A stretch of 64,000 nt of DNA from a virus: the UHGV virus genome UHGV-1342921. One strand, given 5' to 3'. Numbering within the stretch: position 1 is the stretch's first letter; each line of letters begins with the position of its first letter. The position numbers and the translations under genes were made by a program. The notes under the pieces were generated by a model. The model did no database searches, was not told the DNA's origin, and saw only the letters and a list, made by a program, of their open reading frames with translations. Shown here in pieces: positions 4,347-64,000 of this stretch.

Positions 4347-4355
4347 GTTACATTG

Positions 4356-4385: not shown

Positions 4386-4409
4386 TAATATTTCACAAGA
4401 GCGGAGCTG
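4362..4409 (+). promoter_or_regulatory. Perfect 11-bp inverted repeat (ACAGCTCCGCT / AGCGGAGCTGT) bracketing the -10 box. Putative operator.
   Basis: The arms lie at 4362-4372 and 4399-4409 and are centred on the TATAAT at 4380-4385. Confidence 0.4.
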
Positions 4410-4427
4410 TTTGTATGTAAGGAGAAA

Positions 4428-5022
4428 AATGAGACAGAAGATTCTGGCAATCGTCGGTCCTTCATGTGCCGGTAAAGACACAATCAAAGACAGGCTTGCG
4501 CTTATCGACAGCCATACGTTCCACGTTCCACAGCGCGTGACTAGCAGGCCTCGCAGGCCAGGGGAGAGGGACTCGGCGTATAGGTTCGTCACAAAGCGAA
4601 CGTTCAAGACCGAGATAAAGTATGGCTGCCTTGCCGAGTACGGGTGGTTCCGTGGATGGGGGTACGGCACCAGGATTGACGACCTCACCAACGATGACGA
4701 AAAGATCAACGTGCTCACGATGGACTTGAACTCCCTAAAGATGCTCAAGAGGAACCTCGGTGTGGCAGACATCCGCTGTGTCTATCTTGACGCGCCCTTG
4801 TCTGTCCGTCTTAAAAGGTACAAGGACAGGGACGGTGGAATGTCATCGTTTGAGATGTACAGGCGTGCCGTCTCCGACAGCCTTATGTACCGCAACGCCA
4901 TCGACGAGATTCTAAAGCTCGGCATTCCGCACGCCTACATCCCCAACGACAAAGGGTTGTACGGCAGGACAGACGAGGTGCTGTCTTTTTGCAAAGATTG
5001 GTTGAACGGTCAAAGGTTTTAA
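4428..5022 (+). CDS. gmk: Guanylate kinase-like nucleoside monophosphate kinase
   Basis: The P-loop is IVGPSCAGKDT. The guanylate kinase signature reads TSRPRRPGERDSAYRFVTKRTF, compare TTRxPRxGExDGxDYxFV. The RBS AAGGAG sits 6 nt upstream of the ATG. Confidence 0.7.
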
Positions 5023-5023
5023 C

Positions 5024-5052
5024 TTGACATTATGACTCCATCTAGTATATAA
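5024..5052 (+). promoter_or_regulatory. Sigma-A-like promoter: TTGACA, 17 nt, TATAAT.
   Basis: TTGACA lies at 5024-5029 and TATAAT at 5047-5052. The RBS GGAGG precedes the nrdD ATG at 5088. Confidence 0.55.
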
Positions 5053-5087
5053 TACAAAAACCAGACACAAGATATTGGAGGTAGCCT

Positions 5088-46039: not shown

Positions 46040-49000
46040 TTAAGCTTTTCTATGTGTGTAATGTAGCACTTGGTTGTTCAATCCGAGGATAGCTTCTCTG
46101 ATTTCATCGGCAGACGTTGCGTTCGGGAACTCGGCTGTGATGTTGACGTTCTGGTCGACCTTGCTGTTGGCCGTCTCTATGCTCTTCCCGATGGAGGAGA
46201 TGGAACCTACTGCCTCGGCAAGAGTGGCACCCTTCATAGCAGAGGTCATTGCCCTGACGCTCTCGACAGCCTTGAGGATGTTCTGCGTGTCGCTCGCGTT
46301 GAGGACTATCTCTTTGGAGTGAAGGAGTGCAAGCTTACCGGAACCGTCTGACCAGTTACCTGTATAACCGCCAGTATCGTAGCCAACTAGGTTCGTGGAG
46401 GTAAATTTTATAGAAGATGGGTCCCAATATAAATGTTTGTTGTCGTCATGTTCATACCAATAATCAATGTAGTTTTGTACATCGTTAGCAAAATCTTGTC
46501 CGTAGGCTTTAATAAGTTTCGCACTACGGTCTGGATCGTTACCCCATCCGCTCCTTAAACCATAATTGTGAATAGCAAGTGCAACTCCCTTCATCAACTC
46601 GTCTCTTGAATATCCAGAGCCTCCGAAGTTGTTTGTATTTCCTTTGCCATCGTCTCCCTTGCCGTTCCCCTTTCCAGAAGACCCGCTTGGAGTCGTGCTG
46701 ATGATTCCACCTTCGTTTTTGCCTTGTGCTTCCTGACGCTTCATCTTGTTGATTTCGTCCTGTAAGTCTGTTATCGTCTGTCTTAACTCGCCATTCTTCT
46801 GTGAAATAGAGTCAAATGTTGTTTGATATTCTTTTAGCTTGTCGGAGTACCCACCTATCTTTTCTATATATCCTTGGAGCTTACTGGTTAGGAGTCCAAA
46901 ACTGTCTGTAAGATCGTTAACAGACGTTTTAACTCCGTTAAGGCATCCAGATATATCTCCGATATTCTCTTTCGCAATCTTTGAAGCGTTTTCTACAGAC
47001 GTATCATATTGCTTGAGAGACTCTTCCATCTTTGTTTGCATGTCTCTCATAGATTCTGCGAATTTGTCTTTGTTCTGTAACAAGGTGGTAATTGTAGTGC
47101 TCCACCGCGTGTCAATGGAATCAAAAGCGTCTGTCGAGCCATCTTTCAACTTGTCGTAAATTTCTTGCAAGCTTCCAGCGTTTTCACTGTTAAGGGAATC
47201 AACCATGCCGTAGAAGCTTTCAAGTAAGTTCGCTTGAGACGTTGAAAGTTGCTCACCCGTCATATTAACATACTGGACGAAATTGTCGATAATAGCTGTC
47301 ATTTTGTCTGTTCGCTCTTGGACGCTTAAAGTTGTATCGGCAAAGACTTCAGACAAGAGCTGTTTGGTCTGTTGAAAAGCAGAGAAGAAATCTTCCTGAA
47401 CCTGCTTCATTTGATCTTTCGACAAGTTGTAGGCGTTGTTTTGGGCGTCAAGCAAGCCTTCTTGAGCACTCTTAACGTTATCTTCGTTCGCAGTGTATAC
47501 GTAATTATAGTTACCTTGTGAGTCACGACGAAGTTTCATCTGACTCTTATTTGCCTGTGCCTCTTCAAGAGCAATCTGTTGCTTCAGAATCTCTAATTGG
47601 GCTTGAGCGTAAGCAACGTCGTACTCGCTTAAATTGGTCTTTGTTCGAAGATATTCGAGCTGTTGGTTCATCTGGTCGGTAATCTTTGTTTGAATATCAA
47701 GAGTGTTGGCCCCGTCAAGAAGGTCGGTGTATTGAGATTGAAGCTTTTGGATGTTATAAGCTTTGTTCACATCGTCCAAGTAGTAATCGGCGTTCCTGTT
47801 CATCATTTCCCATTGTGTCTGCGCCCAGTCCATGTCGTCTGTGCCGAGCCACTTCTTCTGCCACTCGGCAAGAGCGAGGTTAGCACGGGCTTGCGCTTGT
47901 TGCTTGTAGAGGTTGACAGAGTTTTCTATTGCCTCGTTTTTCTTCTCTGTCGCTTCTCTTACGTGATTTAGGACTTCTTCCTCTTCTTTTGAGCCTTTTA
48001 TGACGGTAGAGGCTATCTTATTCCAATAATCAAGCTCTTCCGTGGCCTCTGCCAATCTTTGGTCGGCAAGCTGGGACTGCACAGCAAGGATTTCGTTCTG
48101 CTCTTTGTATCCTTGAATCGTGTTACCATGAAGAATTTGAGACATTGAGGTGAGATGGTCAAGGCGGTTGCTTATTGAATCAAGCAGGTCCTCTCTCTTT
48201 TCAATCTCGTCTGCGACCAGGTCTATGGCGTCGACGATCGAGTCACGGAGGTTGTCGATCTCTTCCCGGAGGTCGGATGCCATGTCTGTAAGCTGGTCGA
48301 ACACAGCTTTCGCAGCTTCCATCATCGCTTGCTGGTTCTCACCGAAGAGATCTGACTTGCCGGTCTCCTCATACTGCTTGATGTTTTGCAGGATAAGCTG
48401 ACCGCCCCTCAAAGCCATGTCGAGATAGCCTGTGCCGTTTTCGTCGAGGACGCCTTGGCCTTGAAGCTTCTGTCCCGCCAACAAGCCGTCTATCGCGGTC
48501 TGGTACTTGGCTTTTTCCTCGTCCGTCTTTGCCTCGTCCTTAAGTTTCTTCAAGCGAGCGATGGCTGTGTCGAAGAACGTCTTGGCGGCTTTTGTACCAG
48601 CGTCGAAATATTTTGCAATCTTATTGTCGGAGATCTCCGCCGACAGGAACGGGTCGTCCTCTTCGGTATTAAAGTCGCGGAAGGTTTTCTTTAGGTCTGT
48701 TACAGCATCGTCAACTTCTTTTATGGTATCAACTGCTTCAATAGCCTTGTTGAAGATATCTGTAATCATATCTTCAATTTGATCTTGAAGATCTTGAATC
48801 TCTTTCTTTGTTTGTTCAATAGTGTTCGAATTGAGGTCGTTATATTCATCAACCAAATCTTTGTACTTATCAAACTCTTCCTGTTTATCTTCTATTCTCT
48901 CGTCGATGGCTTCCTGCTCTTCTTTCGAGGAGGCATTGTTATATTGCGTGATAAGGCTGTTTATCTCTGCAAGATAGAATTTAAACCGATCCTCATAGTT

Positions 49001-51718
49001 ATCTATGTAGCCTTCTGTGTCAAATTTAATTCCATACTTGGCTAACTCGGCCTGCTTCTCTTGTCTTTCTTGCTTTTCAAGCTCAAGCTTTTGCTGCTGT
49101 AGCTCTATCTGCCTCTTTAAATTCTGTGTAGCTTGCTTTGTATAGTCAAATTTATTATAGCCGACAAGCCGCTCTTGTTCTTTGTTTATTTGTTCCAGCA
49201 GATTTTTCATTTTGTCGAGCTGGGAATTTATCTTTTTATATCTATCATATTCGTCATCAAGAAGGTCTTTTTGGTCTAGGTCTTCGCCACTACCAGAGCC
49301 GTTTCCACCACCTCCTCCTCCGCCACCATCGGAAGAGTTGTCTTTTGGAGTGTAACCACCTCCTTTGTAGGGGGAGTAATCACTTAAACCGGGGTTGTTA
49401 AAAAGCTGGCCTGTGCCTTCTGCGAGATACCAAGCACCAGTTTGATAGTCAGTAGCTTGAACGCCGACGTAGTTTCCCCTGTCGTCTTTGTATACTGCGA
49501 CAACAGGGCCGTCTCCAGCATCAGCTGCTATGTTGACACCAGCTTGTCTAGCTTGTTCTGTGGACATAACAGAATCAAAGGCATACTTACCCTTGTTCTT
49601 AACCTTGTCTTGAGAGGTGCCACCGCTCTTGCCTGCGGCTCCATTACTGGATCCTTTTCCGGAAAGACGAAGTCTAAACCTAGGGATGTGAATCGTTCCT
49701 ATTTCTTCTGAAGTACCGTCTTTCTTGTTAGTTTGATAAATCTCTTTTATTGTTTCATCTTCACCAACGACCTGACTCTCAACTTCTGCGTCGATACTTG
49801 AAACTTCAGACATGACACCTTGAATAATTAACGAGATACCTGTTGCAATGTTGCTAATGGCGCTTTGAGTTTGAGTCATTGTCCCCTGCATGACGGCTCC
49901 TGCGACGGCAGAACTGCTCATCATGTTTTCTGCCAAGCTATCAACAGATGTCAACATCTCTTTTGCTTGATCCTGCATCATGCCAGTGGCAGCAGTTATT
50001 TGAGAAGACATTGCATTAAGAGCAAGTTCATCTGTTTTATAAAAATCTACCACTTCTTGAGCTAAACCTTGAATCATAGGCCTGAACGACTCATTTAGCC
50101 CGCCTAGCTCATTTTTAGCAGACTCCAATACGTCTCCTGTTTCAGAGAAAACTTGAGTCATCTCGTCAAAGTTATCGGTAATATACTCACTGAAATCTGC
50201 CGCTGCACTTAACCTGTCAAAACTCTTCTCCATGTTTTCTAGCTCTTTGACTGCGTCTTTGCTCTCTTTATCCATGTTTTTCAAAGCGACGGTGCCGTGA
50301 CTCGTTACTTTAACCCATTCGCCCTCTACCTTTGACAAGCCGTTTTGGGCTGCTTTTAATTTAATGGCGTTTGTGGCTGTCGTGGCAAGAGACCTTGCAT
50401 ATTGTCCGACAGTTATCTTTCCTGCTTGATATTGAGTATTTAACTGCTTGATACCCTGGTACATCTCATCCGAGAATATCTGGGCCATGTTGGCAGCGTC
50501 GTCATTGTTGTCAAAGAATTCTTTTATTGACTGCCCAGCGTTTATTGCTTGAGCAGAGACTCTAGAGAAGAAATCCTCAAATTGAGAAGAAATTTGATCA
50601 AGGAACTGGGTTGTCTGAACCGACCCGTCTTCAAGAGCATGATTTAGATTAAGAATTTGATCTAGATAACCAGAGCCGTCCTCGCTTGTATAAGCAGAGT
50701 TCATGGACATAACAGTAGCGATATCTTGGTTCTGTTGAGACAGGTCTATTGCATCGCCTGTCAGCTGCTCCATTGCTTTACCAGCATCAAGAACCGATTG
50801 CTCGTACTCTAGAACAGCCCTGTTGTTAAGTTGCCACCCGCCTTCGACTTCGTCAAGATATTTAATATATTCAGGGTTTTCTTTTAAGATATCATATGCT
50901 TCATCTTGGGTGAAATAAGCGCGACCTTCATCTGTGTAAATGTCATCAGCTTGCTTCATCAATCCTTGAATGCTGTCTCTTGAGTCAAGAGCGTCTGATA
51001 AACCTGTGAACTCATCAAGAGATCCTGACAGCTCGTTAAAAGACTTGGTGGCATCCTCTGCCGAGTCCCCTGTCTTATCTATCGCTTTTAAGAAGTCAGA
51101 AATAATATCAGAAGAATCTTGATTTAAATCAATACCTAAACGAGTTAAGTCGTCAACAGAGTAGTTGTATTTCTTTAACACGTCGTATACTGAATCAACA
51201 CTCTCATCAAGCTCGTCTTGGTTTACGTGGCCTTTGCCGTACTTGTCTTCCATGTAACGATTTTGAGCCATTCGAAGGGGCGCTGTCTCTTTGCGCTTTT
51301 CTGCTTCTTCTTTTTTGTCTTTGTCTGCTTGCCCTGTTTTTATATCAAGGACTTCTTGTTCTATCTCTTCAAGAGTCTTGCCGACAGTGCTAATTCCCAT
51401 TGCATCAAAATCAGCCTTTGTAATTCCATGCTCATTTAACCATGCGTCAAACTCATTGACGTCTTTCATCGCCATATCGACAGAATTTGCGCCATATTCT
51501 TTAGAATAATCTCTTGAGCGTGAATCATAAAAATCTTGCCATTGCGAGGCTTTCTCTTGGGCTTCTCTCTCAATTCTGTCTTCTGCCCACTGCTCTGCTT
51601 GTGCGGTGCCATTCTTAAGATCAAAGAAAGCTTGTAAAGCAGCTTCGATGCCATCGTCAAGAGATGGAGCCGTCTGCAATGGCGTCTGTAAATTCAGTGA
51701 TTTCATAATTTGCAGCAT
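46040..51718 (-). CDS. Giant coiled-coil tail protein (1892 aa). It may be a second tape-measure-like protein or a continuation of the TMP.
   Basis: It has long heptad coiled coils, a poly-Gly linker (GGGGGGGGNGSGSG) and a C-terminal globular domain. There is no SD before its first ATG, and its start overlaps the TMP 3' end in the +1 frame. Confidence 0.55.
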   Translation of the reverse strand: MLQIMKSLNLQTPLQTAPSLDDGIEAALQAFFDLKNGTAQAEQWAEDRIEREAQEKASQWQDFYDSRSRDYSKEYGANSVDMAMKDVNEFDAWLNEHGITKADFDAMGISTVGKTLEEIEQEVLDIKTGQADKDKKEEAEKRKETAPLRMAQNRYMEDKYGKGHVNQDELDESVDSVYDVLKKYNYSVDDLTRLGIDLNQDSSDIISDFLKAIDKTGDSAEDATKSFNELSGSLDEFTGLSDALDSRDSIQGLMKQADDIYTDEGRAYFTQDEAYDILKENPEYIKYLDEVEGGWQLNNRAVLEYEQSVLDAGKAMEQLTGDAIDLSQQNQDIATVMSMNSAYTSEDGSGYLDQILNLNHALEDGSVQTTQFLDQISSQFEDFFSRVSAQAINAGQSIKEFFDNNDDAANMAQIFSDEMYQGIKQLNTQYQAGKITVGQYARSLATTATNAIKLKAAQNGLSKVEGEWVKVTSHGTVALKNMDKESKDAVKELENMEKSFDRLSAAADFSEYITDNFDEMTQVFSETGDVLESAKNELGGLNESFRPMIQGLAQEVVDFYKTDELALNAMSSQITAATGMMQDQAKEMLTSVDSLAENMMSSSAVAGAVMQGTMTQTQSAISNIATGISLIIQGVMSEVSSIDAEVESQVVGEDETIKEIYQTNKKDGTSEEIGTIHIPRFRLRLSGKGSSNGAAGKSGGTSQDKVKNKGKYAFDSVMSTEQARQAGVNIAADAGDGPVVAVYKDDRGNYVGVQATDYQTGAWYLAEGTGQLFNNPGLSDYSPYKGGGYTPKDNSSDGGGGGGGGNGSGSGEDLDQKDLLDDEYDRYKKINSQLDKMKNLLEQINKEQERLVGYNKFDYTKQATQNLKRQIELQQQKLELEKQERQEKQAELAKYGIKFDTEGYIDNYEDRFKFYLAEINSLITQYNNASSKEEQEAIDERIEDKQEEFDKYKDLVDEYNDLNSNTIEQTKKEIQDLQDQIEDMITDIFNKAIEAVDTIKEVDDAVTDLKKTFRDFNTEEDDPFLSAEISDNKIAKYFDAGTKAAKTFFDTAIARLKKLKDEAKTDEEKAKYQTAIDGLLAGQKLQGQGVLDENGTGYLDMALRGGQLILQNIKQYEETGKSDLFGENQQAMMEAAKAVFDQLTDMASDLREEIDNLRDSIVDAIDLVADEIEKREDLLDSISNRLDHLTSMSQILHGNTIQGYKEQNEILAVQSQLADQRLAEATEELDYWNKIASTVIKGSKEEEEVLNHVREATEKKNEAIENSVNLYKQQAQARANLALAEWQKKWLGTDDMDWAQTQWEMMNRNADYYLDDVNKAYNIQKLQSQYTDLLDGANTLDIQTKITDQMNQQLEYLRTKTNLSEYDVAYAQAQLEILKQQIALEEAQANKSQMKLRRDSQGNYNYVYTANEDNVKSAQEGLLDAQNNAYNLSKDQMKQVQEDFFSAFQQTKQLLSEVFADTTLSVQERTDKMTAIIDNFVQYVNMTGEQLSTSQANLLESFYGMVDSLNSENAGSLQEIYDKLKDGSTDAFDSIDTRWSTTITTLLQNKDKFAESMRDMQTKMEESLKQYDTSVENASKIAKENIGDISGCLNGVKTSVNDLTDSFGLLTSKLQGYIEKIGGYSDKLKEYQTTFDSISQKNGELRQTITDLQDEINKMKRQEAQGKNEGGIISTTPSGSSGKGNGKGDDGKGNTNNFGGSGYSRDELMKGVALAIHNYGLRSGWGNDPDRSAKLIKAYGQDFANDVQNYIDYWYEHDDNKHLYWDPSSIKFTSTNLVGYDTGGYTGNWSDGSGKLALLHSKEIVLNASDTQNILKAVESVRAMTSAMKGATLAEAVGSISSIGKSIETANSKVDQNVNITAEFPNATSADEIREAILGLNNQVLHYTHRKA

Positions 51719-54700
51719 GAAGCTGGGAAGCCACAGAAGCCACTTGGGAAGCTACTTCTTCATCGTTGTAATGCCCCTCGCCATACTTCTGTTCAGACTC
51801 TCTTCTAGCTTGCTCAACGAGTGTATTATAAGCATCAACGGATTTTTGGCTATAGCCTATCTCTTCACCGTTCTCGAAAGTGATGTCGGCTGTCCATTCG
51901 CCGGTTGTGAGATAAGAAAGAATGGCCGCTTGCACATTCTCCGGAGACCATCCGGCTTCCATGGCGTCCGCTGCATACTGGGCCATAGAAGCAAGTTGCT
52001 CGTCTGAATAATTGACGATATTTTCCCCAAGAACTCCATAGAGGAATTTCATATCCAAACCGGCTTGTTCCTGCCTTTTATCAAATGTTTGACCATCCCC
52101 AAGACGTTGAGCATCAAGTAGTGAAGCCGCATTTGCCATGGCATTTTTTGCTTCATCAGAAGCGCCGGCCATGTCATTGACATTATAAGTCATCTGGTTT
52201 ATATCATTTAAAAGATCACTCTCTGATAATGTGCCGCTCATCACAGCCCAAAATCTTTCGGTTTTTTGCGCATCTGTAAGAATATCGTCGCTTATTGAAA
52301 AAATTTCGTCATGAACTCTATCGCTTTCAGTAACCGCGTCTTCCCAAGACAAGGAAGGGTCTCTTGCCATAAGATATCCAGCAGCTTTGTTTTGGCGATC
52401 TTCTTTCTCTCTTTGAGCTTTTTCAGCTTCAGCTTGCTGTCCAAATAAAGAATCGGCAGTGGCAACCGCTTCTGGCTTTCGAGTACCAGCAAAATTAGCT
52501 GGATCCATCAATGTTGTAGCAAGGTCCTCAATGGTTTTACTGTTTTCCCCTAAATTTGAGACAAAAGTGTCCATGCTGATACCAAAAGATTGAGCATATT
52601 TTGCAGCAAGAGAAAGCTTATCGTAAGAAAGATTTGTTCCTTGAATGTACTCCATCGCAGAAGGAGACTTAAGAAGAGCTTCGTTTAATTCGTCGTTTCC
52701 TGCCGCGCCGCCTTGATAACTAGATAGTTTAGACTTGTTTGACAGTTTTCCGTTACCGGCCCACTCTGGTTTTTCTGTATCTATATTAAAGTTGTCCATT
52801 GTTTGAGCGAGTAATTCACGATATTGCTCACCAAAAATACTCGCAAGTGTATCAAGGACAAACTGCCCGCGATCCTCTTTATTTGTACTATCATAAAGAT
52901 TCTTAAACGACTCGTCATGTAATAATTCTTGAATAGTTGGTATTACCAATTTCGCTATATCTTCGTCAGAAGCGTTATCTGGAATCTTGTCTTTCAAATT
53001 AGATTTTGCAATTTCAACCATGTTTTCTTCGTATTGTTTTTCTTGAGAAACAAGTGTTTCAATGTCTTCGACGCTTCCAAAAATATTTTGAAACAAACCG
53101 AGAGCAGCGGTATATTCTTCGCTAGAAATAGTGCCGTTGGCTAGAGCATCTTGTAAACCAGATAAAACTTGAGAATAGTCATCAACGATCTGCATAGTAG
53201 AAGCATTTGTATCTACTGCTGCGTATGCTAACTCAACATAATCCCGTTCATTTATAGCATTCTTGCCTTGTTGCATTGAAAAAACAGTGCCTTCCATTGC
53301 TTGCGAAAGAGCGTCTGTTGCTTTCTTGTTCGAGGCTCGTTGTGTTTTTTCTTGTTCAGTCTCTTCTTGCCCAGGCCATTGAGGACCAGACCTTACATTT
53401 GTGCCAACCTCTAAATAGTTTGAAGACCAACCATTCTTACTTGTAAAGAAGTCATCAGAGTTCCTAGAAGATTCTATTCCAGAAAGAAGATCTGCGTTAC
53501 TTACTTGTAATTGTGCACTAGTAGCTCTTTCCGCTTGTGTAACATAGTCTTTGAGTGCTTGAGTACCATTTTCGACGCGAGTGGTTAAACCTAATTTTTC
53601 ATAAAGATCATTAACTGCATCTGTCATCTCTGAAGCAGAAATTTTACCATTTTTATATTGCTCATAGAGGCTTTCCATATTATCGCGAGCCTCAATGATT
53701 CCAGAAGAATTAGAAAGCGCTTCGTTAGCTTTATCTACAGCTTTTGCCAGCTTATCTTCTGCGATTTGAGCTTGCTCTTCAATGGCCGCTCCTGCAATTC
53801 CGCTTCCAACAGCAAGCACTGTAGCCCCAATAGAAACCGCCGTTCCTATTCCAGGAATCAACCCACTGGCTCCTCCGATCAATCCAGCAACTTTCCCGAA
53901 TTTTCCAACGGCATTTCCAAGCTTGCTATTTTTAGAAGATGAAGACGCAACTCCACCACTATTGGTTGACGCTCCTTGGACTAGATTGTTTCTTTCTTGA
54001 GCTTCTGTGTTTTGATCAGTAATGATTGTGTTTTCTGCTGTCGCAATTGAATCTTGCTTTACGGCCTGTCTTTTTGCTTTAAAATTATTAACAAGCAATT
54101 CAACTTGATCTCCAAGATTCATTGCGGCGCTTGCTAACATAGGAGCAGTAAAAGCAAGGTTCTCAATAGTTTGGAGAAGCTTCTCTCCTCCTGTTAAATC
54201 TGCGTTTCCCCATATAGAACCAATTGACTTAAAACTCAAGACACTTGCCGAAAGTTGTCCGATAGAACCAACTAAATTTGTTACTTCTGAAACAACTTCT
54301 TTTGTGGTTAAACTGTCTTTAAAGTCACCTACCGCCTCTGTCATTCCTACAACCGCGCCTTTTTGTAGGCCCATTTCCTGAAGGAATTGTTTTATTGAAG
54401 CAGCTGTCTTTTCATCAATCTCATCAAGATTCTGTAATGACTCAATAAAATCTATAACTGCCCGCCTCACGTTTACAAAAGCAGCTTCTACCTCTTGTGT
54501 AATAACTTTAGAAACTTTTGACCCAGGAGCAGTTGGCATTTTTGCAACAGCCTCCCCTAGGGCTGTATTGGCAGAAACAAGAGCTTGATATTGGGGAAGA
54601 GTAGACATAACGTTGGTTCCATCTGCTCCAAGAAATTTTGTATCTGTTGAGAATTGTCTTAACAGAGTGTCAAGAGACAGAGAAACATTTCCAATTCTCG

Positions 54701-55787
54701 TTCTCGTCGCTTTGTTAAATCCACCGTTTTTATTCTTCTTAATGCCAGCAGATACAGCATTCATCTCTGCACTAATCTTCCCTATGTCTGGAGACATACT
54801 GTCAGAAACTTCGTTAATGTCTGTAAAAGCTTTTTTAATATCGCCTAAAACAAGAAGAACTTGATCTAGATTCTCAACCTGACCATCTTCGTTTATTTTA
54901 AGCTCAACAGCCTGACCGGTAACATTCTTATAAGCGATAGCCATCTTATCTAATACGCCAACTGCTTTTTCTCTTTTGTTTAGTAAATCGTTTTCAAGAT
55001 TTACCATTTGCATAAGCATTTGTCTTGATTGTCCGCGTTGTTGTTCGTTCATTATCGCTGCTTTTGAACCAAGGGCTTTAGCGGCTTTATATGTAGCAGA
55101 GTCTTTACTTAAATTAGAAGAATCTACATCCAATTCTGCCAAAAGTTGAGCTCCAAGGACCGAGCTGTCTTGAGTTCTTTTTCGAGCTTTCTTGTTTTGA
55201 GACCTGGTTAAAGCTTGATCACCAATATTTCGACTAAATACCCTTGCTCCAGTACCAAGGACACCGGCAAATAAACTTGTTGAACCAATAGAGGTCGTAA
55301 ACCCGGTGAGAAGCTGAATCAACCCTGTAATATCATCAATAAAAGGCTTAATGTCGTCTACATTAAAGATAGAGTTGATAAAACCTTCAAAAGCAGATTG
55401 CATCGTATTGAGTTTGCCCTCAAGCGAATCAAGATAAATCTGCTGTTGTTGATTGATTGTACCAAGAGAATTTTGAGCAGCTTCCAAATTCTCCTCGTAC
55501 ATCTTGGAATTCTCAAGCAAGGCCATCAAGTTGTTGTATTGATACTTACCAGCGAGTTTAACGGCAAGAGCCTGTTTTTGAGCGGTGTCGAGGTTTTGCC
55601 ACTTACCCATGAGTTCCTCGATAACATCGCCCATGTCACGAAGGTCTCCAGTAGAAGTCTGGATGCTGACACCGACCTCGTCCAAGGCTTCACCAATAGA
55701 GCCTAGAGTGGTGCCGTCTTCGAGAGTCTCTCCGAGCTGGAGGTCACCAAGCCTTGCGTATATGGTTTTGACGCACTTCTTTTACAG
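51657..55787 (-). CDS. Tape measure protein, exon 2. The 5' boundary is approximate.
   Basis: The in-frame sequence upstream of the tracked start reads KTIYARLGDLQLGETLEDGTTLGSIGEALDEVGVSIQTSTGDLRDMGDVIEELMGKWQNL.... This continues the TMP consensus (GNALK-TIF/YARL) after the intron. Confidence 0.7.
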
Positions 55788-57005
55788 GTTCGTGAAGCCT
55801 GTATCATGTCAAGCATGACTCGTACTTTCATACGAGGCGAGACTATATCTTAACCTATTTCTAGGCAAGAGCCATTTCCCTCGCCACGATTTCGCGAGGT
55901 ACTCTCCTTCACGGAGATAGTCGTTGAACCTTGAAAAGGTAATATATCAAGATTAAGAAGCTGTTGTTTCTCTGAAATAATTTCGTAAAGAGGTATCCCC
56001 ATCCTCTTGCAATACTCACGTTTTTTATTATCTCTAGCCTGTTGTCGTTGTAATCCTTTCTCCCCACCCCAGATTTCTACTGGCTTAAAGTGTTGTTCTC
56101 CTTGCACTTCAATAAAATATTGAATTTGTTTATTTTTATCAAATACAACAAAATCGAATCTTTGATGAGGAAGGTCAGGAGCAACAAATTGCTCCTCAAA
56201 AATTATATGATTATCGTTTAGAATCTGTCCCATAAGCTTCTCGCCAAAAGATTTCTTTTTATCGCAAGAGGGGCAGCCTTTTGAAGTCATCATACAAACT
56301 TGTTTACGTTTAAAAATCTTCCCACATTTTTTACAGCGGTAATAGTTTTGCTCAAGTTGGCCTTTATATTCGAGAAGCTCTATTTGTCCTTCAAATAAAC
56401 TGTCTAGTTGAGCTTTTGCATCTTCGATTGATAACATATTGTTAGTCTTTTGCGTATCACAGTTTGTACAGGCGAAAGGGTTGTCAAGACAAGCGTTGAG
56501 CGCCCTGTGACACTCGCACCCACAAACAGAATGTCTTACAATAACATGATCTTTATCTATAACTTTCACAATAGAGAAATCACTGCCTTGATACATTCTA
56601 TATGCTTTTTGTAGCCTTGTCTCATCATGTGCTCCGCAGCAGTCAAATCCATTTAGAAATTGCCTTGCTTTTTTTCTGTTTAAAATTTTTCCACATTTTA
56701 GACATCTTATTGAAGCCGGACCAGAGATAGAAGTATATTCAAGTACTTCAATCTTCGCTTGGGGATAGCGGAAGTTGAACCTAGATAAAAACTCATCTTT
56801 AGAAATTTTTTTAGCCATTCTTATATATTACCTTTCCCTTGGCTGCTGATTGCCCATTCGAAGGATTTAGGCTATAACACATGCCATGTCCCATCCGCTT
56901 ACTTGTTTCTGCTTTCGCTCCTTTTACCTTCGGGAATTTACAAGTAAAAGGCAAAGCGGCTTTAGGGTTTTCCAGCAATTAGACTCTTTTATGCCTTACA
57001 AATTA
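55788..57005 (-). ncRNA. Group I intron in the tape measure gene (minus strand, about 1.2 kb). Boundaries are approximate.
   Basis: Read on the minus strand, the elements are P AATTGCTGGAAAACCC (56986-56965), Q TGGGCAATCAGCAGCCAAGG (56857-56838), R GGTTCAACGACTATC (about 55929-55915) and S AAGATATAGTC (about 55850-55838). Exon 1 ends ...QAPESVGNALK and exon 2 begins KTIYARL. Confidence 0.7.
55850..56818 (-). CDS. Intron-encoded endonuclease with two zinc-ribbon repeats and a C-terminal PD-(D/E)xK / Vsr-like nuclease domain
   Basis: There are duplicated CLKCGKILNRKKARQFLNGFDCCGAHDE and CKKCGKIFKRKQVCMMTSKGCPSCDKKK units. The C-terminus reads FDFVVFDKNKQIQYFIEVQGEQHF...KKREYCKRMGIPLYEI. Its 3' end encodes FQGSTTIS across the R element of the ribozyme. 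Confidence 0.55.
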   Translation of the reverse strand: MAKKISKDEFLSRFNFRYPQAKIEVLEYTSISGPASIRCLKCGKILNRKKARQFLNGFDCCGAHDETRLQKAYRMYQGSDFSIVKVIDKDHVIVRHSVCGCECHRALNACLDNPFACTNCDTQKTNNMLSIEDAKAQLDSLFEGQIELLEYKGQLEQNYYRCKKCGKIFKRKQVCMMTSKGCPSCDKKKSFGEKLMGQILNDNHIIFEEQFVAPDLPHQRFDFVVFDKNKQIQYFIEVQGEQHFKPVEIWGGEKGLQRQQARDNKKREYCKRMGIPLYEIISEKQQLLNLDILPFQGSTTISVKESTSRNRGEGNGSCLEIG

Positions 57006-58022
57006 TTTTAGGGCGTTACCAACAGACTCGGGAGCCTGTCGTGTTACAGAAATAATGGTCGAAAGCTGGGAAACTAGCTGGTCTTGGCTTACACCCAGCG
57101 CGTTGGCGGTAGACGCAACCTTTGATTCTGCCGTTGCAAGCTCTTCCAAGTCAGAAGCACTGACTGCTGCGACTTTTGCGAGCTTATCGACAGAAGACTC
57201 CATATTGTCAACAGAGATTTGGTAGCCGTTCATGAGCGACGTCAACTGCTCTGACACTTCTGCGGTTGCCTGCCCTGTGACGTTTGCCGTCTTGAGGGTT
57301 AGCTCGGCAAGAGAATTGGACTCTTTAAGAGTCTTACCCTGCTGAATGTAAATCAACGAAGCGTTGGTGTACTCTGTCGTCGTCTTGCCGAGAGCTTGGG
57401 CCGCTTTGTTGGCAGAGTCGGCAAATTTATTCATGTCCTCGGCGTTGTATCCGGAAATGATCCTGATGTCGTTGAGCGACCTATCCAAGTCTTTCACATA
57501 GTCGACAGCACGTCCTATGCTGTTAGAGGCTGTCTCAAAGATGCTGGCCGTTATACCCCAACGAAGGGTGTTCTGGAACGTGTTGAACATCTTTGTGACT
57601 GTTGTGCTCATCCTGGAGACTTTTGCCTCGGTTGAACCAAGAGCCGCTGCCAACTGGTTAAACGCCTGTTGTCCAGTAACACCGGTAGTGGAGAATGTCT
57701 TGACAAGGTTCTGGGCAGACACGTTCATCTTCTGGAGGTCCGACAAGAACGCCGAGGTGTTGAACGATCCAGTGGAAAAGTTGGTGGCAGAGTTTAACGC
57801 CTTCTGAATTTTCAGAATTGTTTGATAACTTTCTTCAAGCTCTTTATTGTCTGTTAGTTTAAGTGCATTGTTGTTCTTCGTGTCAGAGGTAAGACCCTTC
57901 ATGCCTTTAAGTTTGTACAAGTCTGTCTGTACTTGACTTAATTTCTTCCTTAAAGTGTCTATACCTCTACTGTCGAGGTTTGTTTGCAAGTTATATACAA
58001 TAGTATTGGAATACTTTGCCAT
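57003..58022 (-). CDS. Tape measure protein, exon 1 (339 aa)
   Basis: The TMP core is conserved: RWGITASIF...AQALGKTTTEYTNASLIYIQQGKTLKESNSLAELTLKTANVTGQATAEVSEQLTSLMNGYQI...VSQLSTIISVTRQAPESVGNALK. The tracked stop that follows lies inside the intron. The RBS is AGGAGGAAAAAGG. Confidence 0.75.
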   Translation of the reverse strand: MAKYSNTIVYNLQTNLDSRGIDTLRKKLSQVQTDLYKLKGMKGLTSDTKNNNALKLTDNKELEESYQTILKIQKALNSATNFSTGSFNTSAFLSDLQKMNVSAQNLVKTFSTTGVTGQQAFNQLAAALGSTEAKVSRMSTTVTKMFNTFQNTLRWGITASIFETASNSIGRAVDYVKDLDRSLNDIRIISGYNAEDMNKFADSANKAAQALGKTTTEYTNASLIYIQQGKTLKESNSLAELTLKTANVTGQATAEVSEQLTSLMNGYQISVDNMESSVDKLAKVAAVSASDLEELATAESKVASTANALGVSQDQLVSQLSTIISVTRQAPESVGNALK

Positions 58023-58894: not shown

Positions 58895-60634
58895 TTATGC
58901 AGGAGTAATCTCTCTTAATAAAGCAATTATTATACTAGAATTTAATGTGATGTTAATTTTATGCGCTCTCATTGCATCAACGTTTTTTCCTATGACCTGT
59001 TTAGAGCGTTGCCTTGCAAGAGTTGTAAGACTACCATTTCCAGACGAAGCTTGCACAAAACTGTTTTTGTTATTGGCTTCATATGTTCCAAAAGTAGTTC
59101 CTTTGCTTTGGTTCCTAGTCCTTAAACCCAAAATAGTAATAGGGTTCGACCTGGTATAAGTCTTATTATTTTTTAGGTTTACTAAAGAGTCCATACACCT
59201 TGTTAAAATGTCTTCCATAGAAATAAGTCTTCCACCAATAAGCATGAAGCTTGAATATGTTTGACCTACGATGGAAAGCCCACCTCTAATTCCAGTAAGC
59301 GCAGAAAGGGCGCTCATTGCAGAAAGTTGAGAGATAAGAACTTCAAGGTCTCTCTGTTTTTCTGCTCTTGAACTTGTTTTTTGCTTAATTGGGGCATCTT
59401 TTCTTTCCCCGTCTTCTGCCGGGATAGCAGAGAGGAGATTTAAAACTTTGAAAAAGTCAGAATCATTATACCCAATAAAGTTGGTAAGTAAAGCCAAAAG
59501 GTTGGTTGACAGAATTTTTATATTGCCAAGTTTTTTACCTTGTGGTAAAGTGCTGATGTTTTTGTACCCAGCGTAGTTCTTTACCGATATGCCAAATCTA
59601 ACTGTCACTCCATCACGGGTTGCTTTTACTGTGATATCAGATTTAGAAGTAGTATTGATTTCAGAATCTTTTAAGATGCTTTGTGTGGCACGCCTTTTTA
59701 GCTCCGGATCTTCTTTAAAAATTATAATTCCTGGATCCGATCCTGTAATACTGATTTCTCGATCCTTAAAATTGTTAAAAAACTCATCGTCGGCATTCGC
59801 AAAAGCCATTGCACCGACCAGCTCTTCTATGCTTCCTTTAAAACTCATTAAAGAGTTTATAATGGCAACTTCAGTTCCCCTTATATCATCTTTCCATTTC
59901 TTTTCAGAAGCACGCCCAGAAACATTTTTTGACGTCTGTTTTGCATATCTCTCTAGCTCTTTTATTTTTTTGTTTATTTCTTGAACTTGATCATAAAGGC
60001 CACCATACTTCTTCTTAAAACTTTCTAAATCAATTATCTGCCCTTCTTTGTAATTCGGGAAGAATAATTTTATTGCACTTTCTTGCTCTGAGGTTAAATT
60101 CTTTAATCCTTGGTTTATTGCTCCAACGACTAAATCGTATTGACATTTTGCAAACAGCCCGTTGTTCTTATCTAAATACTGCCAGCAAAGTTCTTTTAAC
60201 GCTGTAAGAAGTCCTTGCATGCTGGTCGCAGAATTTTCTACAAAAGTCCATAGATATCCTATGTTGTTTAAATCGCCTTGTTTGAGGACGCGAGCTTCAT
60301 TGCCGTCCATCGACCAATCTATACCATTCTCAAATGGCTTAAAGAAGTAACCTTCAGGAACGTTCCCTTCTCTATCGATAGCCTTAAATTCTTTTGCTAG
60401 TCTGTCAACCTCTTTTGGACTAACTTTTTTATCGTTTAAGCCTTGTGTGCTGTTTTTGGCTCTTTTTTTTCTAAAATCATTCAAATGAGACATGTAGATA
60501 TCGTTTAAATCCCTAGGTTGGAATTTATGTTTTATGTTATCATAATAGTAATATACATACCCATAATTAGTATATTCTTTACTCCCAGCAGGAGTATTCC
60601 CACTATTGTTTGAGCTAGAAGACTTTTTTGCCAT
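58895..60634 (-). CDS. Structural protein of unknown function (579 aa, Lys/Asn-rich)
   Basis: This is a tracked ORF with an RBS GGAGGAGGAAATG. Confidence 0.5.
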   Translation of the reverse strand: MAKKSSSSNNSGNTPAGSKEYTNYGYVYYYYDNIKHKFQPRDLNDIYMSHLNDFRKKRAKNSTQGLNDKKVSPKEVDRLAKEFKAIDREGNVPEGYFFKPFENGIDWSMDGNEARVLKQGDLNNIGYLWTFVENSATSMQGLLTALKELCWQYLDKNNGLFAKCQYDLVVGAINQGLKNLTSEQESAIKLFFPNYKEGQIIDLESFKKKYGGLYDQVQEINKKIKELERYAKQTSKNVSGRASEKKWKDDIRGTEVAIINSLMSFKGSIEELVGAMAFANADDEFFNNFKDREISITGSDPGIIIFKEDPELKRRATQSILKDSEINTTSKSDITVKATRDGVTVRFGISVKNYAGYKNISTLPQGKKLGNIKILSTNLLALLTNFIGYNDSDFFKVLNLLSAIPAEDGERKDAPIKQKTSSRAEKQRDLEVLISQLSAMSALSALTGIRGGLSIVGQTYSSFMLIGGRLISMEDILTRCMDSLVNLKNNKTYTRSNPITILGLRTRNQSKGTTFGTYEANNKNSFVQASSGNGSLTTLARQRSKQVIGKNVDAMRAHKINITLNSSIIIALLREITPA

Positions 60635-60714
60635 TTCCTCCTCCTTTCAATCAACAAACGAAAAAAGCCGCCCCACCCCAAAGTAGGGCAGAACGGCTTT
60701 TTAGAGGATGTTTC

Positions 60715-61254
60715 TTACTTAAAAACACACTTTGAAAAGTCAAAGGCGTAAGTGGAAACCTTGTCGTCAGAAGCTCCTGTAACCTTAACCTCAACAACGG
60801 GGTTAGTGGAGTCAACGGCGAAGAGCATGTCTCCATCGTCGCTGGTAAGAGCAGTTCCGGCAACGGACTTGTACGCATACTTCGTGCCACCAGTGAGAGT
60901 GACGGGGAAGTAGTAGCCAGTGGCCTCACCCTCGGGAAGAACCGTCTCGCTCTTACCGGTGAGCTTGTTCCACTTGGCAAGATAATCAGTTGTGTCACTG
61001 ACAGGATAGAGCATACCGAAGAAGTCAATATTCTTACGGGTAATCTCTGTCTTCAGGTTACGGCCATACTTGGCTTCCTTACCAGGAACAGCGCTCGTAA
61101 TCGCAGGATCGGCAGGGTTGCAAGTGTCGTCCTTCACGAGGCTATCCTTTGGAAGAACGTTCTCGTCACCCATGATCTGGATAGCGCAGAACACCTTCTT
61201 GGTACGGTCGAACTTGGTGTAATCCGGGAAAGCATCGAGCGTGAAAGTAAATGA
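60715..61254 (-). CDS. Major-tail-protein-like exon/gene (SFTFTLDAF...VFK). The ATG at 61255-61257 may be the intron's 3' terminal AUG.
   Basis: This is the tracked ORF 60715..61257. There is no SD upstream of its ATG, and the intron P9 hairpins abut the ATG directly. Confidence 0.55.
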   Translation of the reverse strand, partial: SFTFTLDAFPDYTKFDRTKKVFCAIQIMGDENVLPKDSLVKDDTCNPADPAITSAVPGKEAKYGRNLKTEITRKNIDFFGMLYPVSDTTDYLAKWNKLTGKSETVLPEGEATGYYFPVTLTGGTKYAYKSVAGTALTSDDGDMLFAVDSTNPVVEVKVTGASDDKVSTYAFDFSKCVFK

Positions 61255-62149
61255 CATTATTTTCGTATAGGTTCGTTACACCTATACCTCTTAAATAAGA
61301 GCTCATGTTTTCGCATGAGATAAGACTATATCTTCACCCTGTTACCAGGGGTCCCCCATTTCGAGCGCACTTGCGCTCTACTCCAATAAATGGATAGTCG
61401 TTGAGCCTTGACCTCTCCAAGTCTTTCCTTTTAGGATATATCCTATGTTAGATCGAGAACATCCAAACAAAGAAGCAATTTCTTGTAATTTTTTACCCTG
61501 CGAACGGAGAGTAAAAATTTCTTTAATATCATCTTCTTTTAACTTTGAATTTCCTATTTGCTCACCTCGGCAAAAATGTCTTAAACCATGTTCAGAAGCA
61601 TGTTCCATGTTTTGCTTTGGTGTCACCCATTCAAGGTTCTTTAAAGTGTTGTTTGTTTTGTCTCCGTCTATATGATTAACTTCATACAAACTAAAATCTC
61701 TAACAGGATAAAAACAAGCTAATACAAGCCGATGTACCAAAAACTTTTTTGTCTTTTTAGTCTTGGTTACTAGCACCTGCTCCATATAGCCTGTTTTTCT
61801 ATTTAAGAAAGGCTTTAAAAATTTTTGAGAATATTCAGAATAAATTTTTCCATCATCGGAAATGTGGTAAAAATCTTTTATTTCCGGGAAAATCGAACTG
61901 ATTTGTTTTTTCAAGAAAGGCCTTCTTCCTATAGTAAGTTTTCACTATATATAGGATACCCTTTCCCATAAAACTTATTCTCTAAAACGAGAGGTCCTTG
62001 GTTGCTGATTGCCCAATCCTTGTAATTTTCAAACCATCACGCTCGACGTTGCCGTCCACGTTGTGGTTTACAAGGCTATAAGGGTGTTCCAGCAGTTAAG
62101 GGGCTAATTTTTCAACGTATTACTACGCAGCCAAGCAATATTCTACTTT
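61255..62149 (-). ncRNA. Group I intron B (minus strand) carrying an HNH endonuclease ORF. Boundaries are proposed.
   Basis: Read on the minus strand, the proposed P1 pairs exon CCAAGU (62155-62150) with IGS GCUUGG (62136-62131). Then come P AACTGCTGGAACACCC (62101-62082), Q TGGGCAATCAGCAACCAAGG (62015-61996), R TCAACGACTATCC (about 61404-61392) and S GAAGATATAGTC (61335-61324). Three 3' hairpins follow (CTCATG-CGAAAA-CATGAG, CTCTT-ATTT-AAGAG and TATAGG-TGTAACGAA-CCTATA), ending ...AAUAAUG (omega-G at 61255). Confidence 0.7.
61378..61914 (-). CDS. Intron-encoded HNH homing endonuclease (NUMOD4/HNH_3 plus a C-terminal HTH)
   Basis: The HNH motif reads VNHIDGDKTNNTLKNLEWVTPKQNMEHA and the HTH is KKLQEIASLFGCSRSNIGYILKGKTW. 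There is a TTG start with an RBS GGAAGAAGG. The C-terminal ...GSTTIHLLE is encoded across the R element. Confidence 0.75.
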   Translation of the reverse strand: MKKQISSIFPEIKDFYHISDDGKIYSEYSQKFLKPFLNRKTGYMEQVLVTKTKKTKKFLVHRLVLACFYPVRDFSLYEVNHIDGDKTNNTLKNLEWVTPKQNMEHASEHGLRHFCRGEQIGNSKLKEDDIKEIFTLRSQGKKLQEIASLFGCSRSNIGYILKGKTWRGQGSTTIHLLE

Positions 62150-62847
62150 ACTTGGATCTCCGGAGTTAGCCATTGTGAAGGTGAAGTTGGACTGAATCTT
62201 GGCGTCAGGAATGACGAAGACGGCAGGCATATCCTTCTTGGTGTACTGATCGCGGAACAGAGTGGAGGCTTCGATGTAGAAGTCACCAGCGAAGTTCTCG
62301 GCGTCAATAGTTATCTGCCTGGCTCCGCTTGAACGCTGGCAGTAGCAATCAACGCGGAGTGTGCAACCGATGTACTGCTCGGCATCGACGAAAGTCAGCT
62401 CAAGATAAGAGTTGGCAGAAGAAGGAATGGTGAAAACATGTCCATCATCGGTATCACCAAGCACGCACTCACCGATATAATCCTTTGGATTCTGTGTTGT
62501 TGAGGTGTCATCCTTGCGAACCTCGCCGTTCTCGACAAGCTTGATGCCGTCGGTGGCAAGAGAAAGGAAGTAGACACCAGCACCGGCGTTGTCGAGAACC
62601 GTGCCGAAAATCTGGCCCTTGTTCTCGCTAAAGTAGATGTCATGGGCGTCCTGGGCTGTGTCGTAATCAAGGTGGACACAGGCAGTTCCTTCCTTCCTAC
62701 CCTTGACGATAGGAAGATCGAACTGGACGGGCTGGTAAATGTAAGTGCCAGTGGCGTTGCTGGCGTCGGTCACGTTGTTAAGACCAGCACCAGTAAGCAT
62801 GGCGAGAGAAACAGGCGAAATCAATGCGTCTTCAACAGTGAAGGTCA
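62123..62847 (-). CDS. Major-tail-protein-like exon/gene (MTFTVEDALISP...CLAA). The tracked N-terminal extension is intron sequence. The real 3' end may be the splice donor at 62150.
   Basis: The ATG at 62847-62845 is immediately preceded by intron A hairpins. Tandem TAG TAA stops lie at 62125-62120. A P1-like pairing suggests splicing after ...SGDPS (62150), in frame to SFTFTLDAF. Confidence 0.55.
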
Positions 62848-64000
62848 TTGTGCGTTCCCTATGTGTTGGAGCCAGGTCGCTACCCTGACCCTCCTGGTCA
62901 CTGCCGTGTTGCCAGGACTCCACCTTTATGTATACGTGGAGAGCAGACTATATCTTCACCCCGCTCAATGCAGGGGCCTCCCACTTCGAACGCGCTTGCG
63001 TCCTACTCCGACAGACGGATAGTCGTTGAACCTTCTCGATTACTTTTGAAATCTCTTAAAATTGTTCTCGGAATGAGTAACTTTTTGCAAATTGGCAAGT
63101 CGATTATCCGACGGATCGTTATTGATATGGTCAATAACGTAGCCGTCGTAATCATAATCTCCAGTGAAAGTGCTGTAAACAAGCCTATGAATGTAATACC
63201 TTGGGCCGTTCATCCCAAGTTTCACTCTACTATATCTTAAGTTATCATCCGTTCGAATCAATTTTCCAGATTTGGTATTTACAACTCGACCCATGTTGGA
63301 TACCTCGTAAATGGGCGCATCTTTAACCGGTAACCATTGCTCGCCAGGGAGGTTTTCAATGTGATATCGGTGACTTCTGTGAATGACCTTCGCATTCTTC
63401 AGATACTCGTCTGTGTTTTGCTTGAAAGTCGCCCACTCTAGATTCTCAACTCTGTTGTCAAGTTTATCGCCGTTCTTGTGATGGACGACCGGAAGGTTGT
63501 CAGGGTTTGGAAGAAAATATTCAGCGACAAGACGATGCGCATAAACCATCTTGCCCTTTTTTCCGGTAAGTTCGTTCATGAGTGCCAGACAATATGTCTG
63601 GTAGCCAACATTGTCAATCTTACCTGAAACCCAACGACCCTTATCTTCCTCGTACCGTCCTCCGTGACGGCCAGGCTTTTTTAAGCTCTTGACTCTGCCG
63701 TCGTTGTAAATCAAATAATCTGGATCTTCTTTTAGAGGTTTGTATTCGAGCTTGGATGCTGATTGTCCAGTCATAAATATCGCTCTCCTTTTTTTATACT
63801 GGTTTATATGTCCTAGGGACATTATACCCCAATAGATTTAAAAAGTCAAGAAATTTTATGCTTCTGGATTTTCCAGCAGTTCAGGAGGTATTTCTTATAA
63901 GCATTGGTTTGCTTATTGGAGGGTTCACGCGAATGCGAGTGTAAACCTTATAGGGAAGGTTTACCCCAGCCCTCCCATGCTATCAAGCGTGGGTTGCCCT
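62845..64000 (-). ncRNA. Group I intron A (minus strand) carrying an HNH endonuclease ORF. The 5' end is at or beyond the window edge.
   Basis: Read on the minus strand, the elements are P AACTGCTGGAAAATCC (63886-63867), Q TGGACAATCAGCATCCAAG (63769-63751, inside the HNH ORF), R GGTTCAACGACTATC (63032-63018) and S GAAGATATAGTC (62957-62946). The 3' hairpins are CTCCAC-GTATACATAAAG-GTGGAG and TCCTGG...CCAGGA, ending ...CACAAUG. The intron core is closely related to intron B. Confidence 0.65.
63040..63822 (-). CDS. Intron-encoded HNH homing endonuclease (two HNH_3-like halves)
   Basis: The two halves read VHHKNGDKLDNRVENLEWATFKQN and IDHINNDPSDNRLANLQKVTHSEN. The RBS is AAAAAGGAGAG. The ORF spans the Q element. 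Confidence 0.75.
   Translation of the reverse strand: MSLGHINQYKKRRAIFMTGQSASKLEYKPLKEDPDYLIYNDGRVKSLKKPGRHGGRYEEDKGRWVSGKIDNVGYQTYCLALMNELTGKKGKMVYAHRLVAEYFLPNPDNLPVVHHKNGDKLDNRVENLEWATFKQNTDEYLKNAKVIHRSHRYHIENLPGEQWLPVKDAPIYEVSNMGRVVNTKSGKLIRTDDNLRYSRVKLGMNGPRYYIHRLVYSTFTGDYDYDGYVIDHINNDPSDNRLANLQKVTHSENNFKRFQK

Follow-up and report, generated by a model that had tools for sequence, protein, structure and literature searches.

The orf142 gene of Staphylococcus phage Twort contains three group I introns and is now recognized as the tail tube gene (Landthaler & Shub 1999, PNAS 96:7005, as recounted in PMC10136302 and PMC11878797). For the Bastillevirinae, PMC11878797 describes genes with two or three group I introns, in which partial Rfam matches are split by endonuclease open reading frames (ORFs) and intron presence is polymorphic. 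Here we describe a split gene in a stretch of 64,000 nucleotides (nt) of UHGV virus genome UHGV-1342921; the whole stretch is referred to as the window, and it is part of a ~142-kb human-gut phage genome with an SPbeta-like tail module. Three coding blocks on the minus strand very probably constitute one gene, an essential virion gene that encodes a tail tube protein and is split by two related group I introns, A and B, as judged from sequence comparison. The spliced product, obtained by conceptual splicing, has 482 amino acids (aa) and is a tail tube protein of the SPbeta YomU type.

Read along the minus strand from 64000 to 60660, the locus consists of a coding stretch, structured RNA, an HNH ORF, structured RNA, 236 codons, a structured region with an HNH ORF, 179 codons followed by TAA, and a hairpin. 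The features are as follows, with the evidence in brackets; contigs are cited by L numbers and homologous proteins by four-digit P numbers.

63969..64000, minus strand: last 32 nt of exon 1, a predicted exon of 67 codons ending ...K G N P R L I A W E G (sequence of contig L004)
62858..63968, minus strand: predicted intron A, group I, 1111 nt, IA2-like, ORF in the P6 loop (sub-threshold Rfam matches, helices, intron-less alleles)
63040..63774, minus strand: HNH homing-endonuclease ORF of intron A, 244 aa from ATG 63774, or 260 aa from the upstream ATG 63822 (Pfam, PDB)
62150..62857, minus strand: predicted exon 2, 708 nt, 236 codons, ERTMTFTVEDA...MANSGDPS (phrog_2729 at 6e-20, alignments, PF27173)
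61255..62149, minus strand: predicted intron B, group I, 895 nt, ORF in the P6 loop (sub-threshold Rfam matches, helices, intron-less L009 and L006)
61378..61914, minus strand: HNH homing-endonuclease ORF of intron B, 178 aa, TTG start, NUMOD4-HNH_3-HTH, the last being a helix-turn-helix (Pfam, PHROG, PDB)
60715..61254, minus strand: predicted exon 3, 179 codons and TAA (homolog alignments)

The beginning of exon 1 was read from the ENA contig H14_Tanzania_scaffold_4 (L004), which is identical to the window over 12.3 kb. Outside the window, at a distance of 169 nt (L004 6466), are its ATG and an AAGGAGG ribosome-binding site, and a 73-aa ORF with this good ribosome-binding site covers exon 1 and enters the first 32 nt of the window. 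In the output of gene callers, the tube gene appears as unrelated ORFs, three in number, with lengths of 73, 241-266 and 180 aa. The split layout was found in 10 contigs that were read; because it recurs in this way, an assembly artefact is ruled out.

The junctions were set by homologs in which the gene is uninterrupted. A database search with the spliced protein yielded P0019, a full-length protein of 485 aa that is 65% identical and in which both introns are absent; at the junctions it reads AWDGERTMTFTVEDA and GDPSSFTFTMDAF (in longer context ...GNPRLIAWDGERTMTFTVEDALISP... and ...MANSGDPSSFTFTMDAFPDY...). For MT835936, Enterococcus phage VRE9_2, and Phass-1, the alignment is likewise unbroken across both interruptions. 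Both joins are in frame, with no insertion or deletion compared to the intron-less homologs, when G62858 and G61255 are taken as the last intron bases; intron A would then follow codon 67, and intron B codon 303. At site A, the empty allele of L006 reads GGC GAG CGC ACC ATG ACC, and the window reads GGC / UGGGG...CACAUAGG / GAA CGC ACA AUG ACC. At site B, the empty alleles read GAC CCA TCC TCG TTC (L009) and GAT CCT AGC TCC TTC (L006), and the window reads GAU CCA AGU / AAAGUAG...AAAAUAAUG / UCA UUU. The joins and the empty sites are as follows.

Predicted join at intron A: GGGAGGGC/GAACGCACAAUG (AWEG/ERTM)
Predicted join at intron B: GAUCCAAGU/UCAUUUACU (GDPS/SFTF)
Empty-site sequence, L006: GGCGAGCGCACCATGACC
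Empty-site sequence, L009: GGAGACCCATCCTCGTTCACT

A preliminary description of this DNA, made from its letters, had placed the start of intron A beyond position 64000 and its end at an AAUG. The intron-less homologs and a diverged relative, L013, move both boundaries: the 5' splice site falls at 63969/63968, so that the last 32 nt of exon 1 lie within the window, and the 3' end (...CACAUAGG, terminal G 62858) lies 12 nt upstream of the ATG. The intervening GAA CGC ACA ATG (62857-62846) is exonic and encodes E-R-T-M, which appears as ERTM or EKTL in intron-less homologs. In L013 these codons read GAA AGA ACC; because the changes in the E-R-T codons are synonymous, the codons before the first ATG are evidently translated. 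The ATG itself (62848-62846) is an internal codon, Met71, at which homologs have Leu, Met or Val inside a conserved strand. At intron B, only the G of the ATG is involved, being the terminal G of the intron (61255). The two ATGs at or near the intron 3' ends are not start codons.

These observations bear on one of the two models that the preliminary description had offered, namely, separate tandem genes whose start codons coincide with the 3' ends of the introns, the initiation site being removed or regulated by splicing. Such a model accounts for in-frame ATGs at or near both intron ends, and gene callers do annotate ORFs of 241-266 and 180 aa starting there; however, homology to single-ORF tube proteins spans both junctions, exons 2 and 3 form one ORF where intron B is absent, the three codons preceding the upstream ATG are conserved as coding sequence, and that ATG aligns to Leu/Met/Val in a conserved strand. 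The lack of a Shine-Dalgarno sequence at either ATG, which had been recorded correctly, points the same way, since the exon 2 and exon 3 ORFs have no ribosome-binding sites. Nor are the two exons related, as the tandem model and the preliminary description supposed: BLASTP gave E = 1.5, with only short motifs of the FTFT type in common. We consider this model almost certainly wrong. The other model, a single multi-exon structural gene, agrees with the collinearity of intron-less homologs over both junctions without any insertion or deletion, and the product can now be named as a tail tube protein. Its accompanying idea, that internal repeats had each acquired an intron at the same target, is not supported; the exons are dissimilar, and the insertion points are not equivalent relative to the TFT-like motifs, which are short beta-strand motifs that intron-less relatives carry too.

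The product is identified as a tail tube protein because three lines of evidence converge: the synteny with YomW, YomV and the tape measure (gene order YomW - YomV-like - tube - 579 aa - 164 aa - 80 aa - tape measure), a match of exon 2 to phrog_2729, "virion structural protein", at 6e-20, and fold matches. In precomputed annotations, PF27173 (YomU_Tube) covers the exon 1 piece, the exon 2 block, and 120/120 homologs among the matches listed; in the local Pfam copy, which does not hold the PF27173 model, exons 2 and 3 matched no family. A sequence search of the PDB with the spliced protein gave no match. The fold search was performed with Foldseek, using as query a model of the intron-less homolog P0019 with a mean predicted local distance difference test (pLDDT) score of 74.7, and its best matches were tail tube proteins of several phages (8vhx, 8xkn, 8ygm, 9jgh; E 1e-7 to 1e-4). 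Exon 3 begins with the conserved tube C-terminus SFTFTLDAFPDYTKFDRTKKVFCAIQI and continues into a beta-rich C-terminal domain of ~140 aa, for which the P0019 model has pLDDT 85-92 (residues 345-485).

Each intervening region carries the parts of a group I ribozyme. A permissive Rfam scan gave sub-threshold matches to RF00028 at 61302-61519, 61902-62159, 62924-63142 and 63723-63878 (E 7e-5 to 0.23), which bracket the two ORFs. The elements P, Q, R and S are present in the correct order, together with the conserved P3-P8 core:

63881-63871 (intron A) and 62097-62087 (intron B), minus strand: P element AACTGCTGGAA
63764-63751 (intron A) and about 62010-61997 (intron B), minus strand: Q element
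63029-63017 (intron A) and 61404-61392 (intron B), minus strand: R element TCAACGACTATCC; the intron B copy reads GGCTC, not GGTTC
62957-62946 (intron A) and 61335-61324 (intron B), minus strand: S element

The preliminary description had recognized these two minus-strand cores, with the four shared elements in the same places and an HNH ORF in each, and the sub-threshold matches, the helices and the domain searches bear it out; only its statement of a shared R element needs the qualification that the intron B copy differs as listed. A 16-mer containing S, GGTGAAGATATAGTCT, has two exact and two near copies in the window (0.06 expected). Direct checking found P1, P2, P3, P4, P5, P6, P7, P7.1, P7.2, P8, P9, P9.1 and P9.2 in both introns. 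The P7.1/P7.2 layout is one that we take to mark subgroup IA2, the usual phage type, and introns A and B are called IA2-like on that assumption. The ORFs lie in the loops of P6, whose strands are CUCGA/UCGAG in intron A and GACCUCUC/GAGAGGUC in intron B; at its start, ORF A overlaps Q, and the 3' end of ORF B runs through R/P7 and P7.1. The introns are 78% identical from R to S, with compensatory differences between them in P3, P6, P7.1, P7.2 and P8, and many more, including P9, when the intron in the tape-measure gene of the same window is added to the comparison. Regions of other phages match the 3' core at 72-82% identity over 49-68% of its length, and one of these regions is annotated as "Group I catalytic intron".

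In intron B, P1 is of the usual kind: CCAAGUAA (62155-62148, minus strand) pairs with UUGCUUGG (62138-62131), CCAAGU(AA)/(UU)GCUUGG, with a U.G pair at the splice site. Its boundaries (62149/61255), this P1, the TAG TAA within the intron, the AAGAGG inside a hairpin and the GDPS/SFTFTLDAF join all stand as first described. A second phage contig, L046, has intron B at the equivalent site.

Several points weigh against a gene split by two introns of this kind. At the curated gathering threshold (50 bits) Rfam gave no match in the introns, the best RF00028 scores being 29.6, 26.8 and 25.9 bits. Position -1 of intron A is C63969, which faces A63924, and the usual U.G pair is absent. To accommodate the L011 variant, either the 5' site has to move by 1 nt or the terminal nucleotide has to be other than G. 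Finally, the case for splicing itself is built from comparative sequence. The low scores are attributed to the splitting of each ribozyme by an ORF of 0.5-0.8 kb; it should be noted that, in another part of the window, a probable intron that has no ORF likewise reaches just 27.3 bits.

The sub-threshold scores would also suit an absence of splicing, in which the tube gene has been broken up by free-standing HNH genes and its pieces are either translated separately and assemble, or belong to a dead gene. Homing-endonuclease genes can split phage genes without introns. Against this, a complete ribozyme structure flanks each ORF, P1 fits the exon end, the terminal G stands exactly where homology breaks, exons 2 and 3 have no translation signals, and the layout is conserved in many independently assembled phage genomes. 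We regard fragmentation without splicing as highly improbable and return to the gene split by two introns.

The 5' splice site of intron A deserves separate consideration. The internal guide AACCCUCC (63918..63925, minus strand) pairs with exon GGAGGGCU (63975-63968); within it, CCCUCC (63923-63918) pairs with GGAGGG (63975-63970), two hairpins occupy the P1 loop, and P2 follows. This register was examined for covariation in eight distinct intron A variants from other contigs. Over all variants, 93.8% of P1 and P2 pair positions have standard pairs, compared to 30-46% in registers slid by 1-3 columns, and 0/500 shuffles matched the observed values. Four pairs are changed on both sides, one of them in P1 (L013, GGAAGG/CCUUCC), and there is one G.U (L015). 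The C at -1 faces A in six variants, pairs with G in two (L040, L011), and is never U. No protein constraint explains this C, because GGU would be a synonymous codon.

If the 5' site were instead placed 6 nt downstream, after U63963 (UGGGGU, 63963/63962), the gene would be split in the same way and the -1 base would be the usual U. The product would contain two extra residues, AWEG-WG-ERTM; UGGGGU is conserved in window-type variants, and the junction lies between two predicted strands in the structural model, where an insertion of two residues might be tolerated. However, no guide pairs well with GCUGGGGU, and U63963 is Watson-Crick paired in a separate conserved hairpin. The guide covaries with GGAGGG (L013) and not with GGGGU, the two extra residues are absent from all intron-less homologs, and the in-frame equivalent is missing from variants L011 and L040. 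The tape-measure intron also has C opposite A, in a register where its L011 homolog has U.G. The U63963 site is unlikely, and we infer, provisionally, that intron A is cleaved after C. If confirmed, this C would be a small but real exception to textbook group I splice-site recognition, of interest to ribozyme specialists.

All other intron A sites were enumerated by hand, combining every U-ending 5' site with every 3' site after a G; they gave stops, frameshifts, or loss of the invariant W65/G67, with the sole exception of the site that adds Trp-Gly.

The tape-measure intron belongs to the same family.

55772-57010, minus strand: tape-measure intron, with a 322-aa DUF723/DUF2726 ORF at 55850-56818 (unsplit alleles L009 and L016 read GNAMKTIY)

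Its predicted junction reads GCC C/UAAAA...GUGCG/UC AAA, and the C faces A in the P1 GCCCUA/UAAGGC. Other junctions were enumerated here as well, and only C at -1 fits both the terminal G and the protein length of the unsplit alleles. In homologs of this intron, the same P1 register has U.G in L011, as noted, and A opposite G in L006. The sequences expected after splicing are as follows.

Predicted spliced-junction k-mer, intron A with C at -1: CATGGGAGGGCGAACGCACAATGACC
Predicted spliced-junction k-mer, intron A, U-ending alternative: CATGGGAGGGCTGGGGTGAACGCACA
Predicted spliced-junction k-mer, intron B: GGAGATCCAAGTTCATTTACTTTC
Predicted spliced-junction k-mer, tape-measure intron: GGTAACGCCCTCAAAACCATATAC
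Predicted junction peptide, intron A: LIAWEGER (LIAWEGWGER under the U-ending site)
Predicted junction peptide, intron B: IQSNFTFTMANSGDPSSFTFTLDAFPDYTK

Both tube-gene introns encode putative homing endonucleases. ORF A matches Pfam HNH_3 (4.6e-29) and NUMOD4 (9e-12) above cut-off, in two stretches each, and thus consists of two tandem NUMOD4-HNH_3 modules; it matches PDB 1U3E, deposited as "HNH homing endonuclease", at 7e-14. ORF B matches HNH_3 (1.9e-9) and HTH_7 above cut-off, with NUMOD4 just below it (21.5 vs 23.4 bits), phrog_59 (3e-44), and 1U3E (4.9e-13 over residues 14-164). We take 1U3E to be I-HmuI. It has one HNH region, compared to the two modules of ORF A, and these two modules could allow double-strand cutting by a single polypeptide. 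Between the two endonucleases the relationship is distant (49% identity over 45 aa), and an IMG/VR search with the intron B enzyme gave just relatives of at most 49% identity. A promoter-like sequence precedes ORF A:

63821..63849, minus strand: near-consensus sigma-70-like promoter TTGACT-17-TATAAT (11/12 matches), within the extended P5 of intron A and ahead of the HNH ORF at ATG 63774

The TTGACT is conserved in L009, L013 and L015, and a promoter function of this site is presumed.

Related phages carry the tube gene in several states: with no intron (L006-L008), with intron A only (L009-L014 and others), with A and B (the window, L004/L005, and IMG/VR contig 3300045988_131152), and with A and a third intron 17 nt downstream (L015-L017). 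The proteins P0001-P0018 are 86-96% identical and lack exon 1; in each of the six that were fetched (6/6), exons 2 and 3 form one ORF that reads GDPSSFTFTMDAF contiguously. Because exon 1 is missing and exons 2 and 3 are joined, these phages would have intron A, but not intron B; the absence of B with A kept was confirmed in the DNA of L009/L010. The Ser codon at -1 of site B is AGU where intron B is present, supplying the U.G pair, and UCC or AGC in empty alleles. This difference is compatible with co-conversion in the course of homing, and also with selection for pairing in P1. Homing by the HNH enzymes would account for the patchy distribution of the introns, and their presence or absence among phages with 86-96% protein identity offers a natural system for the study of homing and co-conversion.

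The third intron (L015 2029-3487; also in L016 and L017) has a canonical U.G P1, GACCUU/GAGGUC, and a 369-aa ORF for which Pfam gave no match. It leaves a 17-nt micro-exon, GAACGCACAAUGACCUU, between intron A and itself.

A broader proposal, with about equal chances of being right and wrong, is that intron A and the tape-measure intron cleave after C. The window and its relatives would then form a natural series in which an IA2-like phage lineage does without the wobble at the cleavage site, or has C.A in its place; in addition, the tube gene of this clade would be a hot spot for introns, polymorphic at three sites, with a 17-nt micro-exon and possibly exon skipping of the Twort type. Skipping of exon 2 (708 nt) would keep the frame.

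Taken together, the data suggest the following course of expression. The pre-mRNA would begin outside the window, at the start site of the tube gene itself, and each intron would fold as a P1-P9 ribozyme, in which exogenous guanosine attacks the 5' splice site chosen by P1; the freed exon would then attack after the terminal G, giving the in-frame joins AWEG/ERTM and GDPS/SFTF. This guanosine-initiated self-splicing is assumed by analogy with the established group I pathway. On unspliced RNA, translation would halt inside each intron and yield just the 73-aa fragment; because of these stops, production of the tube and assembly of the tail would depend on splicing. When phages co-infect a cell, the I-HmuI-like HNH enzymes presumably nick or cut alleles that lack the intron, which is then copied in.

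Other features of the window and its relatives were noted as well.

60662..60702, minus strand: strong terminator-like hairpin and T-run of the intrinsic type, past the end of the tube gene
58895-60634, minus strand: 579-aa ORF directly downstream of the tube gene
about 2747-3010, plus strand: probable ORF-less group I intron (Rfam 27.3 bits, E 0.006)

In all related contigs, the position equivalent to that of the conserved 579-aa ORF holds an ORF of 528-583 aa, and for the 579-aa ORF itself neither Pfam nor PHROG gave a match. The ORF-less intron sits between a PHP/Pol III-alpha/finger ORF (508-2751) and an HHH_6 ORF (3018-4346), and it appears to split a DnaE-like polymerase gene. Around 51659, the window has a 2-nt deletion (TC within TCTCTC) compared to the otherwise identical contigs L004 and L005. 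As a result, the distal tape-measure ORF is divided into 51657-55685 and 46040-51718; the deletion may be either a genuine frameshift variant or an error of assembly. Phage Phass-1 (L003, OQ749652), which is classified in the "code 15" (TAG-recoded) clade, has at 3957-5573 a distant homolog of the window tube protein; under the standard code, the region of the window that was examined gives long ORFs. A megablast search of the region against GenBank phages gave no match.

Recognition of the introns restores a 482-aa tube protein from three ORFs, and an intact tape-measure gene as well, and indicates that HNH group I introns colonize tail genes of an abundant clade of uncultured human-gut phages. 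Among known systems, the endonucleases resemble those of Bacillus phages SPO1/SP82 (I-HmuI/I-HmuII), since both intron ORFs match 1U3E, and ORF B has the same layout of N-terminal region, HNH and C-terminal helix-turn-helix. However, the host gene there is a DNA polymerase gene and here a structural one, and the intron A enzyme has two NUMOD4-HNH modules. The IA2 introns of the T4 td/nrdB type have P7.1/P7.2, an ORF looped from P6 that overlaps the core, and an internal promoter. All of these have counterparts here, with a promoter-like site in place of the last, whereas the sequences are only distantly similar and the enzymes are HNH, compared to GIY-YIG for I-TevI. With respect to the C at -1, one precedent is known to us: Hur and Waring (1995, NAR 23:4466) reportedly described two introns, from fungal mitochondria, whose 5' splice site has C.G in place of U.G; intron A likewise has C at -1, facing G in L040 and L011, whereas most variants here have C opposite A.

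The Bastillevirinae share with the window phage clade multi-intron genes, partial Rfam matches around endonuclease ORFs, and polymorphic introns; in the survey of PMC11878797, however, the introns there lie just in core genes of nucleotide/DNA metabolism, including terminases, whereas those described here lie in the tail tube and tape-measure genes. The closest likeness is to Twort orf142: a tail tube gene with several mutually similar IA2-type group I introns, and a skippable 23-nt micro-exon between two of them, comparable to the 17-nt micro-exon of the relatives L015-L017. The differences are that the window tube protein is unrelated in family and size, being a 482-aa protein of the YomU/siphovirus type with an insertion domain and a C-terminal domain, that the insertion sites differ, that the phage is an uncultured gut phage of ~142 kb, and that intron A has no U.G pair. 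As predicted here, the locus is the known Twort-type arrangement in an unrelated tube family, in an uncultured gut phage.

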